Part shown: positions 1,275-20,000 of the stretch, in pieces
Position numbering within the stretch: the first letter of the stretch is position 1
Layout of the letters: every line of letters starts with the position of its first letter
DNA from: Catajapyx aquilonaris
Taxonomy: Eukaryota
Length of the DNA: 20,000 nucleotides
Reading direction: 5' to 3'
Assembly (NCBI GenBank): GCA_000934665.2
Contig: JYFJ02001944.1
Coordinates: 46,038-66,037 of the forward strand
Position numbers and translations under genes: made by a program
The notes under the pieces: generated by a model
Told to the model about the DNA's origin: nothing
Database searches by the model: none
Seen by the model: only the letters and a program-made list of their open reading frames with translations

Positions 1275-2044
1275 TATTGTCCAACGCAGTGATCGGTGCA
1301 GTAATTTGTTTACTTCTGCAGCGACCCATCATGTGCCTTCGGTGAAAATCTTTTTAGCAATTCAGTTCGGATCACACTATACTTTAATAGCTAAAATTGG
1401 TGCGAAAGCCCTGAGGCACAATTATTATATTATTCCCCTCAGATACGCCCACAAATAAGACTACCTGTACGTCAAAACAGTAAAAACATTTTGTAACCTT
1501 GCATGTGAATATGGTAGGCCCCTTATCTTGTTTGATTATGAGCACTTGAAGCGAGGATAAGATGATCAGTCAGACTTTTTTGATGCCACAACTTCAGATT
1601 TATAGAGCATGATGAGGTAATTAATTTCAAATTGCGAATATGGAGCATGTGAGTTACGCTGCAGCAAAGTAGAGCAGACGTGGATTTTTATGCTCTAAAT
1701 TAAGTAATTAATGACGTTGGTGTAATATTTTAGCATTTTTTTTTTGAAAAATCATTACAGGTTACAGGGCTGTGGAAGTGAATCTTTGGTTGACTCGTCG
1801 TACTTGATGTAAGTAATATTTTTTTTTGGAACATTGTTGCTGTGTATCAGTATGCGTCACATACTGTGAACGCTGGCTGATTCCCCCACACACTTCAAGT
1901 AAAAGTGACGCCTCTGGATTATTATCAGCATGTATGTGTCTTGCCAAATGCAACTCTTGATAACAAGAGTACCTTGAACCATATTTGCTCATTGTAACAG
2001 CCTAGTTGCTGGTTGTCACTCACACCGTTAACATTCAACCAAAG

Positions 2045-2096
2045 ATGGGCAGCTGTTATCTTCTGGGCTTCGTGGCACTGGCCTTAATCGCCACAG
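2045..2096 (+). CDS. Multi-domain defensin-like (CS-alpha-beta) secreted protein, exon 1 (signal peptide)
   Basis: AAGATGG start context; encodes MGSCYLLGFVALALIAT plus 1 nt; donor CAG|GTAATT, phase 1. Confidence 0.85.
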
Positions 2097-2315
2097 GTAA
2101 TTTCTAGGTTAATCCAGGATTTTACTAACACAAGGTGGTGCAAAACCACAAGTATAATGCGTATTGTGCTGTAGGACAAGTTATAAAATAACAATTTAAT
2201 TACTCCATACAATTCAATGGTGTATATTCGGATTGTTATCCACATAAATCATTCCTAAATATTTTCTTCACTATGTAAATCATTCACAACCAATCCTTGA
2301 ACTATAATTATACAG

Positions 2316-2446
2316 TGAGCTCCCTTCCAACTGGTGGTGGTACCATCCTGGTGTACCAGTCCAAAAATGGCGAAGACGTGTTCATAAAGGCGTACCCGGC
2401 TGGGTACAGCAAGTGCATGAAGACGTGCGTTGACAATGGCCAAGAT
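2316..2446 (+). CDS. Multi-domain defensin-like protein, exon 2
   Basis: Acceptor TATACAG; in frame from exon 1 gives VSS|LPTGGGTILVYQSKNGEDVFIKAYPAGYSKCMKTCVDNGQD (likely signal cleavage VSS-LP); donor GAT|GTAAGT, phase 0. Confidence 0.85.
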
Positions 2447-2566
2447 GTAAGTAATCACTAAGCAACAACCTCTGGACGTAATCTCGAGGTCATCATTGTC
2501 ATCATCATCATCAACAGCCGTAATCACTTGTTTTGTTTGACGTCAATCAATTTGTATATCTGAAAG

Positions 2567-2821
2567 GCGTGCGACCACAGATGCAAGAATCCGCAGGAGG
2601 TGCTGAAGGGCATCTTGTCCAACTGCACTCAGGAGGAATACGATGCTTGTGTCGATTACTGCCACTCCGTTGGTATCAACTCGACCACGTGTTTCGGCGA
2701 TGGGAACTGCCTGTGCGTCGAGATGTACGGAAACGACCTGCTGAAGACGAAGATGGCCAAGCAGGAGACGGAGGAAGAGTGTGAAGACTGCGACGCATAT
2801 TGCGACCAGCTTCCTTCGCAG
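2567..2821 (+). CDS. Multi-domain defensin-like protein, exon 3
   Basis: Acceptor TGAAAG; ACDHRCKNPQEVLKGILSNCTQEEYDACVDYCHSVGINSTTCFGDGNCLCVEMYGNDLLKTKMAKQETEEECEDCDAYCDQLPSQ; donor CAG|GTATAC, phase 0. Overlaps ORF 2600..2866. Confidence 0.85.
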
Positions 2822-2921
2822 GTATACACTATACACACCTGCGTAGTCTTAAAGGAAATTAAATAAATTCAAGGGCATGACGCACACCCATCAGTGTGAC
2901 CGCACATTTTAATAATTACAG

Positions 2922-3059
2922 GAAGTGACATGCAGCCCTCCCGTCGGATGCGAATGCGACTCGGACGAAGCCGGTACCATGTACCTGCTAGGTGACGACA
3001 AATGCACGCCAGAAGAAATACAAGAGTGTCACGACCGATGCGTCGACAACGGATTCAAG
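2922..3059 (+). CDS. Multi-domain defensin-like protein, exon 4
   Basis: Acceptor ATTACAG; EVTCSPPVGCECDSDEAGTMYLLGDDKCTPEEIQECHDRCVDNGFK; donor AAG|GTCCGA, phase 0. Completes the domain 2 cysteine pattern. Confidence 0.85.
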
Positions 3060-3113
3060 GTCCGAAACTAATTTACGTATATAATAACACATAATTATTA
3101 TAGAAGCTCTATT

Positions 3114-3680
3114 ATTTGTTCATTTCATACCCATCGAGAAGAAAATACTGACCTTATTCGATTATTGTGGGTATGAAATGGACAAGCAAACAAACTGTGT
3201 CGAATTTTCGTCCCACTGCTATACGCGTAGTTAGCCTACTGGCTAACTTAGCAGTACCAGTGCCAACATTATTATTGACACTGCTAAGTTAATAGCAGTA
3301 ACTATAGCAGTGCGACGAAAATTCCACCCATCGTCTTTTATAAAAGCTTTTTTTTTCTTTCCATTTTACACCTTATTATTCATACCCATAATAATAGAAT
3401 AGTGTTTTCTGGGTATGAAATAGTAATGAATGGTGGACAAACAAACAAACTTATATAAAAGACAATGTTCGTTTGCTTGTCCATTTCACATCCATAAGTT
3501 ATTATACCCATAATAACCGAATAAGTATATTATTTTCTTCCTGATGGACCGGACAAACAAACTTTTATCCTTTATAAAAGCTTGTTTGTTTGTTTGTTTG
3601 TTTGTTTGTTTGTGTGTTTGTTGTCCATTTCATACCCATTTCATGCCCATAATATAATTATGAACCATTTTCTTCTTCAT
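3114..3680. repeat. Cluster of about four degenerate short foldback units in intron 4
   Basis: Recurring TTTG(C/T)TTGTCCATTTCATACCCA and its reverse complement TGGGTATGAAATGGACAA(A/G)CAAAC; TTTATAAAAGC spacers; (TTTG)n at about 3582-3620. Confidence 0.6.
3196..3330. mobile_element. MITE-like palindromic element
   Basis: Terminal inverted repeats GTCGAATTTTCGTCCCACTGCTATA / TATAGCAGTGCGACGAAAATTCCAC (2 mismatches) and an inner pair AACTTAGCAGT / ACTGCTAAGTT. Confidence 0.65.
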
Positions 3681-3713
3681 GAGAGTTGATACAACCAGTT
3701 TTTCTTGTTACAG

Positions 3714-3755
3714 GACGGCACGTGTCTGATCCCAGGCTTGTGCTCATGCGCTTAA
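3714..3755 (+). CDS. Multi-domain defensin-like protein, exon 5 (terminal)
   Basis: Acceptor TTTTTCTTGTTACAG; DGTCLIPGLCSCA* completes domain 3 with exactly the spacing of domain 1; AATAAA follows at 3801. Confidence 0.85.
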   Translation, partial: DGTCLIPGLCSCA

Positions 3756-3800
3756 ATCGACCTGATAACATCTGAAAGTTGAAGTGTTGAACCAATGGTT

Positions 3801-3806
3801 AATAAA
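3801..3806 (+). terminator. Polyadenylation signal of the defensin-like gene
   Basis: AATAAA 45 nt after the stop codon, followed by a GT/T-rich tract (TTGTGTATGTTG). Confidence 0.65.
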
Positions 3807-3935
3807 AATCGGTGCATTACAATATTGTGTATGTTGCCTTTTTTAAAACAAAAAAAAATGTCCGTTAGTGGCCCCTCGTGTGCTGCCTACATTAAAATCA
3901 AGCCTCTCTTTCTGTGTGTGTGTTTCATTGGAGCG

Positions 3936-4042
3936 AGGAAAAGTGGAAGTGTGGCGCATGCGCTGTTTGAGGGAAGGTTTAGAGCGGGTGGTCGCAAACC
4001 ATGGAAGGAAAACTAGGGTCGCCCTCAGATCTCTTTTCAGTT
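3936..4042 (+). promoter_or_regulatory. Candidate promoter of the sushi/F-lectin gene
   Basis: NRF1-type palindrome GCGCATGCGC at 3954-3963, an ETS-core GGAAGT just upstream and Inr-like TCAGTT at 4037-4042. Confidence 0.5.
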
Positions 4043-4145
4043 GACGGTTGAGGGTCGAGGAAGTGAGTTGTTGAGCTTTTTTCCCCCCCTTTTCCTTTTC
4101 CCCCCCATATGGCCTAGAGCTGGACACGCGCTCATTTGCCTACAG
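4039..4145 (+). other. Candidate non-coding first exon (1a) of the sushi/F-lectin gene
   Basis: Follows the promoter motifs and ends in a consensus donor CAG|GTGAGT at 4145/4146. The start is inferred from the Inr. Confidence 0.5.
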
Positions 4146-5799
4146 GTGAGTCGTGGTGTTATAAGCACATGTACATTATAATAAGAAATTATATGCTAAT
4201 ATTTGGTGGCGCCTCAGGGTCGCTCCTTGCTTACACACGTAAATGATAAGAAAAAAAAAGTTTGTTTGTAAACGAGGTCTAACGGAAGGATGTTCAAAAA
4301 ATTAAGCCAAAATAGTTCAATTTAATTTTCTTTGTTACTTTGGTTTGTTAACAGTCTGAGCTCTCCAATTGGGAAAAGTAACAGTTTGATATAATATTGC
4401 TGTAATATATCGTATGTGCAGGATGGTACAGTACCCAAGTACAAGATCATAAAAAGGCTAAGTGAACAGGCTGTTGACCCCAGTAATTAGTTTGAAGAAA
4501 AGAAAATCTGTTGGAAGAAACTGCCACATAAGGCCTACTCATCTAATAATAATAATAATGGTTCGCTTAAAAACAATTCGTCTTGTCACAAACATTTAAC
4601 TTTAATTGCACAATTGTAGTCATCAGCGTCTTGTACTGTCTTATCGTGTATGCTACATATTTAGTATTAAAAGTTGTAGGTTTTGGTATGTAGCCTTCGA
4701 GTGTATTTACCCCTCCGGCTATTTACGACGCTATTGCTCTCCCACATTTTTTTGAAGTGAAGGGCGCCTTTTTTTGATGATATCTCAGCACCTTTTATTT
4801 ACAAAAATTGATCAGTTTTTGCATTCGAATTTTCCTCAATAATGTTAGCACAGAGACTAGCCTGTAATAGCCTGTATAGGAATACACTTTTATCCAGCTT
4901 TTTTATTGTAATACTTTATACAAATATTTTTGATGCCATTCCCTTCAACCTGAACTTTTTTTCGTCCATGTTCTGTTTAAGTGTTGACATGTTATTTTTT
5001 ATAACTCATAAAATGATGTACTGAATCCAATTTTAGGCGTTGGTTCCATCTTTTGTATATTTAAAAAAAACACGCTTTAAATTGCTCGGTACGTTTAACA
5101 GTATTGTCTCGAATAGCTGTGACGCAACAGAGGGTTATACCGAACAATCCGACAAAAAATTTAGACAAAGTCTCCACCTCTCCAAAAAATTGTGAAAGCG
5201 TCTCAGTAATACACGAAATATCCTTGTACTTGCCAAGGATTCTTCACATATGAGACAATGATAATAAAAAAAATGTCAGTGCGGTTTTCTCGTGAATCAC
5301 ATCAGAAAACTGACGGAATTTTCTCGAAAAAAAAGAGACCACACACTCGCTGATGACATACACGCAGAGATTATTTTTTTCCCTCCACACATCCTGCTTT
5401 TGAGTGTCTAACAGTGAGTTTACTTTTCTCCGAGGTATATATCGAGGGTGTGTCTCCCGAGTGTGAAGAAATGAGATACCACGTGAAGGGAAACGATAAA
5501 AATAACGCAAGTTTTTCAACTCGACGAAAAACTTTAGGGGGGTAGAATTTTTTTCTATCTGACTCAGCTTAATGTGTGTGTGCTGTTTTGAGGGTTGTCA
5601 GAAATTTTTGGCAAGCTTTGGGAATCTGGTATCGTAAAAACGTCGCGTGTGAGACGCGCTGATTACTAGGTATCTTTATAGGACAAAAAAAAATAATGAG
5701 AAGAAAAAAATCCGACCTTGTTAACCACCTTCAATCGCAAGTTCAGATAGCAATTACTGCACTTGTGTAATAAGAAAAGTGTAGGAAAAATCTCTGAAG

Positions 5800-11354: not shown

Positions 11355-11577
11355 ATCATAAAATAACTTAATAAAATATTACAAAAGATAATTAACTTAA
11401 TAGCTAGCTAATAAAATAACGAAATAAATAACTAAAATAACTATAAGTAAAAAATTAAAATTAAAAATACAAAACTGATAAAATAACTAAACAGCTAATA
11501 AAATAACTGAAATATCTAATAAAATAACTAAATAACAATTAAAATGAATAACTAAATGAAATAAAGTATAAATAATA
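11355..11577. repeat. AT-rich low-complexity (AAATAACT-like) tract
   Basis: Direct reading. Confidence 0.6.
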
Positions 11578-14259: not shown

Positions 14260-14820
14260 TATCAGTCATTTTATTTTATTCGGCTATTTCATTTAGTAGT
14301 TTTTATTTATTTATTATTTAGTTATTCATTCATAGATGTTTATTAGTTAATACTGTATTAGCTATTTATGGGCAATTTTCAATTTATTAGTTATATTATT
14401 GGCTATTTATGGGCAATCTATTAGTATACTATAAGGTATTGGCAATTTAATAGTACTTTATTGGCTATTTATTAGATATAGTTATTGGCTATAATAAATA
14501 AATAGCCACTAAATTACTAATAAATTGCCAATAGCTAATAACTGCTAAAACGAATAAATAACCGAATATAAAATAATCGAATAAAATGTACTAAATAACT
14601 GAATCAAATACCGGTACGTATACTAAATAACTGAATAAAATAGAAAAAGATAATAAATAACTAAATAATCAATAACTAGCCAACTAATAGTTATTGGCTA
14701 TTTATTAAGTTATTTATTGACTAGTTATTAGCCACTTATTCGACATTTATTAGCTAGTTATTCGAGATTTAGTTAGTTATTTATTATTTTTATATTTGAT
14801 TGTTTTATAATTATTATATT
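14260..14820. repeat. AT-rich foldback/low-complexity block (TTATTGGCTA / TAGCCAATAA-type motifs in alternating orientation)
   Basis: T-rich, A-rich and T-rich segments built from the same short motif. Confidence 0.55.
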
Positions 14821-14832
14821 CTATTTACGCAG

Positions 14833-15044
14833 TAAACTGTAAAGCGCCATAAAGTATTAAAAGAGAATTACTTTAATGCTCTTGTGATGCTCTTGTAATG
14901 TTTTTTTGTTTGCTAAAAAGCAACTAAAACATTAAAGGAGAATTACAAAGGCATTAAGAGAGCATTACAAGGGCATTAAAATTGATGCTCCATGGGAGAG
15001 GCAGTATAGTGATGCTCTTTTAATGTTCTGCGGTTTACAGTGTA
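14833..15044. mobile_element. MITE-like palindromic element
   Basis: TAAACTGTAAAGCGC..ATTAAAAGAG versus CTCTTTTAAT..GCGGTTTACAGTGTA; inner pair TTTAATGCTCTTGTGATGCTCT / AGAGCATTACAAGGGCATTAAA. Confidence 0.65.
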
Positions 15045-18430: not shown

Positions 18431-18889
18431 CTATATTTTATACCTTACTCATACTGTCCAAATATTAATAATTTTCGGTCTTGTACCACCCCTGGCCATG
18501 GCTGTATTTCCTAGATTTCACTTCACGATCTATACGATTGCACATTGAAAGCCTGTTTACCCAGCAATTGAAAGGGCGGTGCAAATAATAGAGGAGCAAC
18601 AATTGCATCTCCGGTGCGAGAAAATGTGTGGGTGTAGACGTGGGCGGCAGGGTTTAAATGTCGGCGGTAAGTGTCAAAGTCATACAGAGTAATCAGCACA
18701 CCGGAAGAAATTACGGGCACGTTTGATTAAATTTGTCGGTTATTACAATGAGCGAGAAAATGGCGGCGGAAATTACCGGTAATTGTTGAAAGGTGCGTAT
18801 GAATGAAAGTGTTGACATTTTCCTGAATGCTTTGGTGATTAGTGATTACTGCCGTTTTTGTTAATTAAAATGAAGACAAATATTTGCAG

Positions 18890-19075
18890 GTATGCAGCCA
18901 AAGCAATGCGGTCCTCCGGGTCGTCCTGCCAACGGATCAGTGAGCAACGGACCTTCCTTGTACTATCCCGGAGAAGAAGTCCGGTACTCATGTGACCACA
19001 GCTTCGTTCTGATCGGCACAGAGGTCAGGAGGTGCCGAGACGACGGAACCTGGACAGGACGGATACCCAGATGCG
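18890..19075 (+). CDS. Sushi/CCP domain exon of a furrowed/CG9095-like protein
   Basis: Acceptor TATTTGCAG; QCGPPGRPANG...YPGEEVRYSCDHSFVLIGTEVRRCRDDGTWTGRIPRC has the four Cys and the Trp of a CCP domain; phase 1-1 exon; donor G|GTATGT. Confidence 0.9.
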
Positions 19076-19143
19076 GTATGTCACCCTTTGGTGCTAATAA
19101 TTTCAGTTCAATCTAGTGCCAAATGTGTCATACACTGGTCGTA

Positions 19144-19239: not shown

Positions 19240-19264
19240 TAAGGGAACTGTTTTATGTCCACAG

Positions 19265-19453
19265 AACTGAACGTGGCCAAAGAGAAGGAAGCTCGACAAT
19301 CAGCGACCCTCTGGAGCTACGCGGCCGAACTGGCTGTCGATGGAAACCCTGAATCGTGCAGTTTCACCCCCAAGAGTGTGGACAACCGTTGGTGGCAGGT
19401 GGACCTCGGACAGATGTACGACGTGGAAGCCGTTGCAGTCACAATCAGTCAAG
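19265..19453 (+). CDS. F-type lectin (FTP/fucolectin-like) domain exon, N-terminal part; the gene continues beyond the window
   Basis: Acceptor TTTTATGTCCACAG; ELNVAKEKEARQSATLWSYAAELAVDGNPESCSFTPKSVDNRWWQVDLGQMYDVEAVAVTISQ shows the NVA..QS..AVDG..C..T..WW.VDLG F-lectin signature; probable donor AAG|GTTGGA. Confidence 0.85.
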
Positions 19454-19770
19454 GTTGGAACTATTTCTCACTATTTTCAACCCCGTGTTAATAATTGCCA
19501 ATTATTACAAAACACATCCCGGACGGACGTGGAGCATATTAAACACGCCCGGAACAAAAAGGGGGTCTTCTGGTCACCGCCGCCGGTAGAGAGAGAGATT
19601 CGAAGTTAGATGAACCCCAGGGGCCAGAACTAGGTCACTGAACGTCCGGGAACCAACCCATTGTTACGAGAGGGTCTTCTCTCGCACATGGAAAGGGAAA
19701 GGATTGTTTTTAAAAAAAAGTACTATAGGGATAACTATTAAATCTGAAAGAAAATTAAGAAAAAAAATAT

Positions 19771-20000
19771 GCGGTTCGAGAAACATTCGCTTCGCTCGCA
19801 TTTTTTTCCATGCCTGCGGTTCGAGAAACATTCTCTTCGCTCGCATTTTTCCATGCTTGCGGTTCGAGAAACATTCGCTTCGCTTGCATTTTTTTCCATG
19901 CCTGCGGTTCGAGAAACATTCGCTTCGCTCGCATTTTTTCCATGCCTGCGGTTCGAGAAACATTCTCTTCGCTCGCATTTTTCCATGCTTGCGGTTCGAG
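19771..20000. repeat. Tandem minisatellite, 43-45 bp unit, at least 5 copies, running off the window
   Basis: GCGGTTCGAGAAACATTC(G/T)CTTCGCTCGCAT(5-7)CCATGC(C/T)T with units starting at 19771, 19816, 19859, 19904, 19948 and 19991. Confidence 0.9.

Follow-up and report, generated by a model that had tools for sequence, protein, structure and literature searches.

A gene that carries three introns at the same point of a repeated protein unit raises two questions, namely, whether those introns record the way in which the gene was built and whether they serve to recombine its parts at the RNA level. Such a gene lies on the plus strand at positions 2045-3755 of a 20,000-nucleotide (nt) stretch of DNA from Catajapyx aquilonaris (GenBank assembly GCA_000934665.2, contig JYFJ02001944.1, positions 46,038 to 66,037 of the forward strand), which we call the window and from whose first letter all positions below are counted. 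An earlier note on this DNA had proposed that the gene arose by internal duplication of a single intron-split unit and that skipping of its exons could generate combinatorial peptide diversity. The gene-level origin of tandem disulfide-rich proteins, including multi-domain defensins, bivalent toxins, and secreted cysteine-rich repeat proteins (SCREPs), is poorly documented. In this study, we found that the five-exon gene is real, expressed, and of animal type and that its product is a secreted acidic protein of repeated defensin-like modules. Internal duplication is well supported, and a splice-shuffling system is unsupported. The reading that we prefer, at a probability of roughly 0.7, is that of a constitutively spliced gene whose product, a secreted acidic tandem array of cysteine-stabilized alpha/beta (CS-alpha/beta) modules grown by exon duplication, works as a multivalent binding protein.

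Gene structure and transcript evidence

Joining five exons bounded by GT..AG introns yields an open coding sequence of 618 nt, that is, 205 codons followed by TAA. In the gene model, exon 1 (2045-2096; 52 nt) supplies the ATG and a hydrophobic N terminus that by eye resembles a signal peptide, and it ends in phase 1 at intron 1 (2097-2315; 219 nt, GT..AG, phase 1). Exon 2 (2316-2446) encodes the N-terminal region and the helix half of a degenerate first unit, U1. Intron 2 (2447-2566; 120 nt, phase 0) has the donor GAT/GTAAGT and a weak acceptor, AAAG. Exon 3 (2567-2821; 255 nt, phase 0-0) carries the CxxxC formed by Cys63 and Cys67, the whole of U2 (2624-2716, Cys81 to Cys111, a complete six-cysteine unit with no intron), and, past a linker, the helix half of U3 (2780-2821). 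It is separated by intron 3 (2822-2921; 100 nt, phase 0, donor CAG/GTATAC) from exon 4 (2922-3059; 138 nt, phase 0-0), in which a linker joins the strand half of U3 (2922-2957) to the helix half of U4 (3003-3059). Intron 4 (3060-3713; 654 nt, phase 0) is predicted to run from a weak donor, AAG/GTCCGA, to a strong acceptor, in which a strong pyrimidine tract and CAG precede 3714. The coding part of exon 5 (3714-3755) would then add the strand half of U4 in the frame xxxCx5CxC, with spacing identical to that of U2 and U3, followed by a single Ala and the TAA. Exon 5 and the joint from 3059 to 3714 are predictions from sequence logic alone. A likely poly(A) signal, judged by the position of its motif, is the AATAAA at 3801-3806, which starts 46 nt past the stop codon.

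Transcript evidence came from one public run of unrecorded kind (X1), kept as contigs, and these were placed on positions 1500-4500. We take X1 to be RNA-derived for the sole reason that its contig is spliced. That contig, of 546 letters at a depth of 320, agrees with the genome in every aligned letter, covers exon 2 with no mismatches, runs in exon 4 as far as 3057, and contains the joints 2446 to 2567 and 2821 to 2922, both GT..AG; the latter was reported as 2818 to 2919, "cut +3." Introns 2 and 3 are thus confirmed base for base. X1 support for intron 1 is weak, with 18 to 22 nt on its side. The depth of 57 in the bin 2005-2105 equals, by arithmetic, 320 x 18/101, which places the first 18 letters of the contig on the end of exon 1 and fits the joint of exons 1 and 2. 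A low-depth X1 contig (2.9) lies without mismatches on 3316-3665 inside intron 4, and it fits a trace of unspliced RNA or of DNA.

Introns 2 to 4 are in register with the cysteine framework

The joined five-exon model bears out what the earlier note had seen of the introns. Introns 2, 3, and 4 are all in phase 0, and each follows the second cysteine of a CxxxC by exactly six residues, namely, Cys55 plus VDNGQD, Cys140 plus DQLPSQ, and Cys186 plus VDNGFK. The reported likeness of the ends of exons 2 and 4 is also real, as the 15-mers at 2426-2440 and 3039-3053, which begin 21 nt before the exon ends, share 12 of 15 bases, and their three differences are all synonymous third positions. Domain 1 had been described as lacking an intron at that point, and U2 does lie wholly inside exon 3. 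The further claim that each intron parts a helix half from a hairpin half holds for introns 3 and 4 and fails for intron 2, past which a second CxxxC (Cys63/Cys67) stands in place of a strand half with CxC. One intron lies inside each of three of the four modules, and none lies between modules.

The odds that two further introns would come to lie in the same slot by chance are about 1e-4, given a gapless register of 32 columns and three phases. We scanned the whole window for the half-domain and splice-site motifs "CxxxC plus six residues, then GT" and "AG, then xxxCx4-6CxC." The scan returned only the three and two sites of the gene plus two microsatellite artefacts, and the same scan on 100 shuffled windows gave a mean of 1.23 sites. 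The in-register intron pattern is not a product of chance.

Intron 4 is five to six times as long as introns 2 and 3 because it contains inverted repeats in a nested arrangement as well as a (TTGT)10 array. The inverted repeats occupy 3116-3654, with arms at 3131-3174 and 3504-3547 (82%), at 3196-3223 and 3303-3330 (89%), and at 3168-3185 and 3621-3638 (100%), and the (TTGT)10 microsatellite lies at 3582-3622. Pieces of 3194-3331 are also matched by other X1 contigs with loose ends, which indicates that the repeat is dispersed and resembles a miniature inverted-repeat transposable element (MITE).

Modules and predicted fold of the product

The 205-residue product consists of the hydrophobic N terminus, a 33-residue stretch, U1 with four cysteines, and U2, U3, and U4 with six cysteines each, and the linkers between modules measure 15 to 21 residues. 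U2 (Cys81-111), U3 (Cys133-158), and U4 (Cys174-204) have the identical spacing CxxxC-x9-C-x5-C-x-C, so that each of the three displays the six-cysteine framework C..CxxxC..C..CxC. The mature protein, of 188 residues, has 22 cysteines, an isoelectric point (pI) of 4.19, and 34 Asp and Glu residues versus 13 Lys and Arg; the net charges of its three six-cysteine modules are -5, -6, and -4. It contains two N-x-S/T sites, and dibasic sites (KR, RR, KK, RK) are absent throughout the protein.

We predicted the fold of U2 alone (2609-2731, 41 residues), the only unit that is complete within one exon. The AlphaFold2 model has a predicted local distance difference test score (pLDDT) of 81.3 and shows a helix at residues 8-21 and strands at 25-30 and 33-37; a helix packed on an antiparallel beta-sheet is therefore predicted, for U2 only. 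A Foldseek search of the PDB with this model gave 30 matches at E<=10, none of them at E<=0.001. Judged by title, peptides of the CS-alpha/beta fold make up at least 18 of the first 19 matches, and drosomycin, cobatoxin, insect defensin A, scorpion defensin 1, tamapin, scyllatoxin, and nasonin-1 are among the matches listed; several superpose with a root-mean-square deviation (rmsd) of 1.3 to 3.3 Å over 26 to 32 columns. Against 48,161 chains, VIA-align ranked mytilin (rmsd 1.8 Å, 31 aligned) and AtLURE1.2 highest, both with a Z of 3.4; nasonin-1M, termicin, drosomycin, ASABF, and plant defensins came next, and about 20 of its best 50 rows are of this fold by title. A feature search of an atlas with U2 pointed to scorpion short-toxin clusters (Toxin_5, Toxin_2) at 0.76 to 0.84, which lies below the threshold of 0.9 and serves as a lead only. 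Because the structure matches are enriched for one fold and the cysteine signature agrees with it, the best reading of the U2 model is a CS-alpha/beta (cis-defensin) fold.

U1 is a degenerate unit that lacks the six-cysteine framework and reads Cys51xxxCys55 ... Cys63xxxCys67, that is, CxxxC..CxxxC. Its helix half is homologous to the helix half of U4; it has Ala43 where the first framework cysteine would stand, and its CxxxC-plus-six stretch occupies 2414-2446 in exon 2. Past intron 2, at 2570-2584, a second CxxxC replaces xxxCx5CxC. The pattern CxxxC..CxxxC resembles that of helical-hairpin peptides with a cysteine-stabilized alpha/alpha (CS-alpha/alpha) fold. U1 may represent a fold change in situ, from alpha/beta to helical hairpin.

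Sequence searches brought no relatives to light. The stop-to-stop frames that hold exons 2 to 4 matched no Pfam family at E<=0.01, a word-indexed protein search with exon 3, which covers longer proteins, found no relative, and a search of the atlas with exon 3 brought no usable match. An exhaustive phmmer search with exon 3 against 1.84 billion representatives returned two matches at E<=0.001, both of them unrelated repetitive proteins. The single match of phmmer against PDB sequences was a lysozyme at E=2.3, which is chance. A metagenome scan gave one locus (52% GC), which was rejected as a relative because its match is confined to a short stretch centred on a 9-residue identical word.

Proposed origin by duplication of a straddling exon

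The internal duplication proposed in the earlier note is supported by the shared position and phase of the three introns and by the alignment of the units. U2, U3, and U4 align without gaps, and U2 and U4 are identical at 13 of 32 positions. When sequences were shuffled with the cysteines fixed, the observed score was reached in 3 of 1,000 shuffles for U2-U4 and in 30 of 1,000 for U2-U3; the matching helix halves of U1 and U4 (K-x-x-P..CxxxCVDNG) were equalled in 39 of 1,000. Pairwise comparison of introns 1 to 4 revealed no similarity beyond that of shuffles, which gives no hint of gene conversion or of a recent duplication, and, together with a DNA identity between units of 43 to 51%, indicates that the duplications are old.

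Since the introns lie inside three of the four modules and never between them, the natural repeat unit appears to be an exon that straddles two modules, namely, a symmetric phase 0-0 exon that encodes the hairpin half of module n and, joined to it by the linker, the helix half of module n+1. The array would have grown by serial duplication of one such exon through unequal crossing-over in the flanking introns, each round adding one whole module and copying an intron six codons after the CxxxC. Exon 4 (46 codons) would be one copy of the unit, and exon 3 (85 codons) would be two copies, of 38 and 47 codons, fused by loss of the U2 intron. Splicing across the exon junctions would rebuild the modules, so that every module copy, bar the one whose intron was lost, would be assembled across a splice junction.

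A model in which an intronless module was duplicated and three introns were afterwards gained independently at the same proto-splice site draws on the AG/G found at two of the three junctions and on the absence of an intron from U2. In the available text of PMC4165938, moreover, proto-splice sites are invoked for intron positions common to fungi and amphioxus. That model nevertheless demands three gains in one slot of about 96, with odds of roughly 1e-4; the junction at exon 2, GAT/GCG, is not a proto-splice site, and a single intron loss in U2 is the simpler account. We regard independent gain as exceedingly improbable.

Splicing, the 3' end, and the weight of the evidence

The earlier note had argued that exon skipping stays in frame and in register. 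Exons 3 and 4 are indeed symmetric (0-0) and every skip is in frame, as claimed, and exon 3 joined to exon 5 does give a complete chimeric six-cysteine module. A sound product results from the skip of exon 4 only, which leaves 159 residues, 16 cysteines, and one hybrid module. Skipping exon 3 leaves 11 cysteines and skipping exons 3 and 4 leaves 5; these odd counts arise because the helix half in exon 2 has lost its first cysteine. The idea of regulated skipping that recombines helix and hairpin halves at the RNA level could also draw on the weak acceptor of exon 3 (AAAG) and the weak donor of exon 4 (GTCCGA), as well as on the break of the X1 contig exactly at the border of exon 4, which could be a branch in the assembly graph. 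The junctions that such skipping would create (2446 to 2922, 2821 to 3714, and 2446 to 3714) are all absent from X1, whose single deep contig holds the constitutive joints, with the limit that contigs can hide rare isoforms. At most three extra isoforms are conceivable, which is no combinatorial repertoire, and the 20-kb window contains no duplicated or alternative half-domain exons to spare. The proposed peptide diversity also fits poorly with a protein of pI 4.19 that has no dibasic sites, and no case of half-domain splicing in this fold emerged from the portions of the literature that were searched. The same formal property belongs to any gene with symmetric exons. Since in-frame skippable exons follow automatically from duplicating a symmetric exon, they are not evidence of a splice system, and we consider that the introns are very unlikely to serve one. 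A comparably slim chance attaches to the joint proposal that a regulated exon 4 skip yields a three-unit isoform with a U3-U4 hybrid while U1 has been converted to a helical hairpin. If that were true, the locus would be a living example of fold change and of RNA-level half-domain recombination in the defensin fold. It would represent a new diversity mechanism only if isoforms were shown.

Several results weigh against the preferred reading, and the 3' end is where the transcript evidence gives out. The X1 contig ends at the border of exon 4 (3058-3059) with its last two letters unaligned, exon 5 and the joint from 3059 to 3714 have no transcript support, with no X1 cover on 3714-3830, and the donor of intron 4, GTCCGA, is weak. 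X1 cover is likewise absent from 3058-3115, the 3' untranslated region (UTR), and the start-codon region. The predicted 3' end could accordingly be wrong or variable, with exon 4 joining an exon outside 1500-4500 or with intron 4 retained, in which case translation would stop after three codons (...GFK-VRN-stop) and 3714-3755 would be a relic; the missing cover, the two loose letters, and the weak donor all speak for this. What speaks against it is the strong pyrimidine tract and CAG before 3714, the frame behind them with the cysteine spacing of U2 and U3, a stop, and an AATAAA 46 nt downstream, as well as the lack of any other hairpin-half exon in the window and of any X1 contig that reaches into intron 4 at 3060-3115. 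The mRNA must also have a 5' end, and the contig does not contain that either. Because it lacks the start-codon region as well, the missing ends may be an effect of assembly, and the two unaligned letters may reflect a polymorphism, a branch of the assembly graph, or an artefact. A wrong or variable 3' end is, in our judgment, improbable.

Other points against the constitutively spliced CS-alpha/beta array concern its fold, its history, and its function. The fold matches are statistically weak (E>=1.1 in Foldseek, Z<=3.4 in VIA-align) and U2 is the only unit that was folded, although weak scores are to be expected of only about 35 residues. A model of the whole of exon 3 (pLDDT 68.3) found no meaningful structural neighbours with either Foldseek or VIA-align, because an exon does not fold as a unit. 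With hmmscan, exons 2, 3, and 4 matched no Pfam-A family at E<=1, including the defensin and toxin families that we considered by name (Defensin_2, Gamma-thionin, Toxin_2, Toxin_5, and the like). The similarity of U3 and U4 is not significant by itself (108 of 1,000 cysteine-fixed shuffles). Homologues are absent from all libraries searched, and the function is pure inference.

Function and relation to known systems

Cleavage of the chain, as a polyprotein precursor, into individual defensin-like antimicrobial peptides would suit the tandem modules and their linkers of 15 to 21 residues. Multi-copy precursors of antimicrobial peptides are known in invertebrates. The nahymenoptaecins and nasonins are multi-copy or multi-domain cases in the available part of PMC2853521. 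Our protein, however, has no KR, RR, KK, or RK site, and its modules, at -4 to -6 in a mature chain of pI 4.19, are unlike cationic antimicrobial peptides. Measured against the strict notion of an antimicrobial defensin as a small cationic peptide released from a precursor, it departs in charge, in pI, and in dibasic sites. An acidic chain with several modules and no convertase sites argues against both a cationic antimicrobial peptide and a polyprotein; a cationic membrane-active peptide or a cut precursor is thus unlikely, and processing into separate antimicrobial peptides in particular seems very improbable. The product is most likely one multivalent disulfide-rich binding protein, a ligand or inhibitor of the SCREP type that would act in defence or secretion.

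The CS-alpha/beta peptides, including mytilin, insect defensin A, drosomycin, termicin, ASABF, plant defensins and LUREs, and the scorpion short K+-channel toxins, have the six-cysteine framework in common with the modules described here, and they top both structure searches with the predicted helix and hairpin of U2. The modules differ from these peptides in that Pfam gives none of their families at E<=1 and phmmer gives no real match in the PDB, in being anionic (-4 to -6) rather than cationic, and in forming a chain of four units with no processing sites. The disulfides of the CS-alpha/beta fold pair C1-C4, C2-C5, and C3-C6. A G-x-C motif before the fourth cysteine is typical of this fold, and here it occurs only in U4. 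The half-domain exons also recall Dscam1, in which the halves of a small domain with a disulfide are encoded by arrays of alternative, mutually exclusive exons. As in Dscam1, the exons here encode domain halves, so that exchange of exons yields a chimeric domain; unlike in Dscam1, each exon is present in one copy, with no spare cassettes and with no alternative junction in X1.

Secreted precursors that contain more than one module of this fold also include, according to the portions of the reports at hand, nasonin-2 and nasonin-6 of Nasonia vitripennis, multi-domain proteins that arose by exon duplication (PMC2853521), and pochlasin2, a fungal two-domain defensin (PMC4165938). The legend of Figure 11 in PMC2853521 places the nasonin introns between domains, in phase 1, so that one exon is a whole domain; compared with what that legend shows, the introns here are in phase 0 and inside domains, and the duplicated exon and the fold are out of register. 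Introns do occupy varied positions in this fold, and the available text of PMC4165938 describes phase 0 introns within the domain in fungi (in the helix) and in amphioxus (in the c-loop).

SCREPs and bivalent venom peptides, as the available sections of PMC6262176 and PMC9885460 present them, are secreted proteins in which disulfide-rich modules stand in tandem, each folding independently, with short linkers between them; the chain is left uncleaved, and multivalent binding is the proposed mode of action. The product matches that description in its predicted secretion, its predicted tandem disulfide-rich modules, and its lack of dibasic sites. The architecture of a signal peptide followed by at least two tandem cysteine-rich modules is thus present, the signal being called by eye and the uncleaved state being deduced. 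The main text of the SCREP review makes no use of the word "defensin." For bivalent spider toxins, the accessible text of a 2026 study (PMC13172734) describes duplication within an exon, with no introns involved, and notes that no case of intron-driven repeat formation had been reported for bivalent toxins, whereas the introns of the gene studied here mark the repeat unit.

The literature that we searched, which is not all literature, contained no protein with several modules of this fold in which the exon that was duplicated straddles modules. The locus would represent a different route for the defensin fold, in which an out-of-register exon is duplicated, modules are assembled over splice junctions, and one intron has since been lost. 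It contributes a multi-module orphan of strongly acidic character to a fold that is known mainly from small cationic peptides and toxins, and its register of exons and modules is unusual but explicable. Such a gene may be of use for the study of gene-structure evolution and for multivalent mini-protein scaffolds.

Other features of the window

The GC content of the window ranges from 30 to 48%, and a search for transfer RNA genes found none. Within the 5' end of the window, the part richest in GC contains an open reading frame (ORF) on the plus strand (16-699) of 227 codons, acidic and rich in Leu and Glu, for which we found no Pfam family and, in a word-indexed search, no relatives; it may form the final exon of a gene upstream. 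The middle of the window is poor in genes and carries A/T-rich tandem arrays with periods of 15 to 24 nt at 11409-11575 and 14432-14981. Near the other end, the plus strand has a Sushi/CCP exon at 18874-19113 (Pfam E = 4e-13) and an F5/8 type C (discoidin) exon at 19243-19488 (Pfam E = 4e-9 and 2e-7); no close relatives of the latter turned up, and the two exons probably open a neighbouring gene whose product is a secreted or adhesion protein. As a clue to the taxon, only these two exons point to a metazoan. They are followed at 19770-20000 by a tandem repeat of 45 nt in 5.2 copies with 92% matches, which can also be described with an 88-nt period; it continues past the end of the window, and all six reading frames are open across it.

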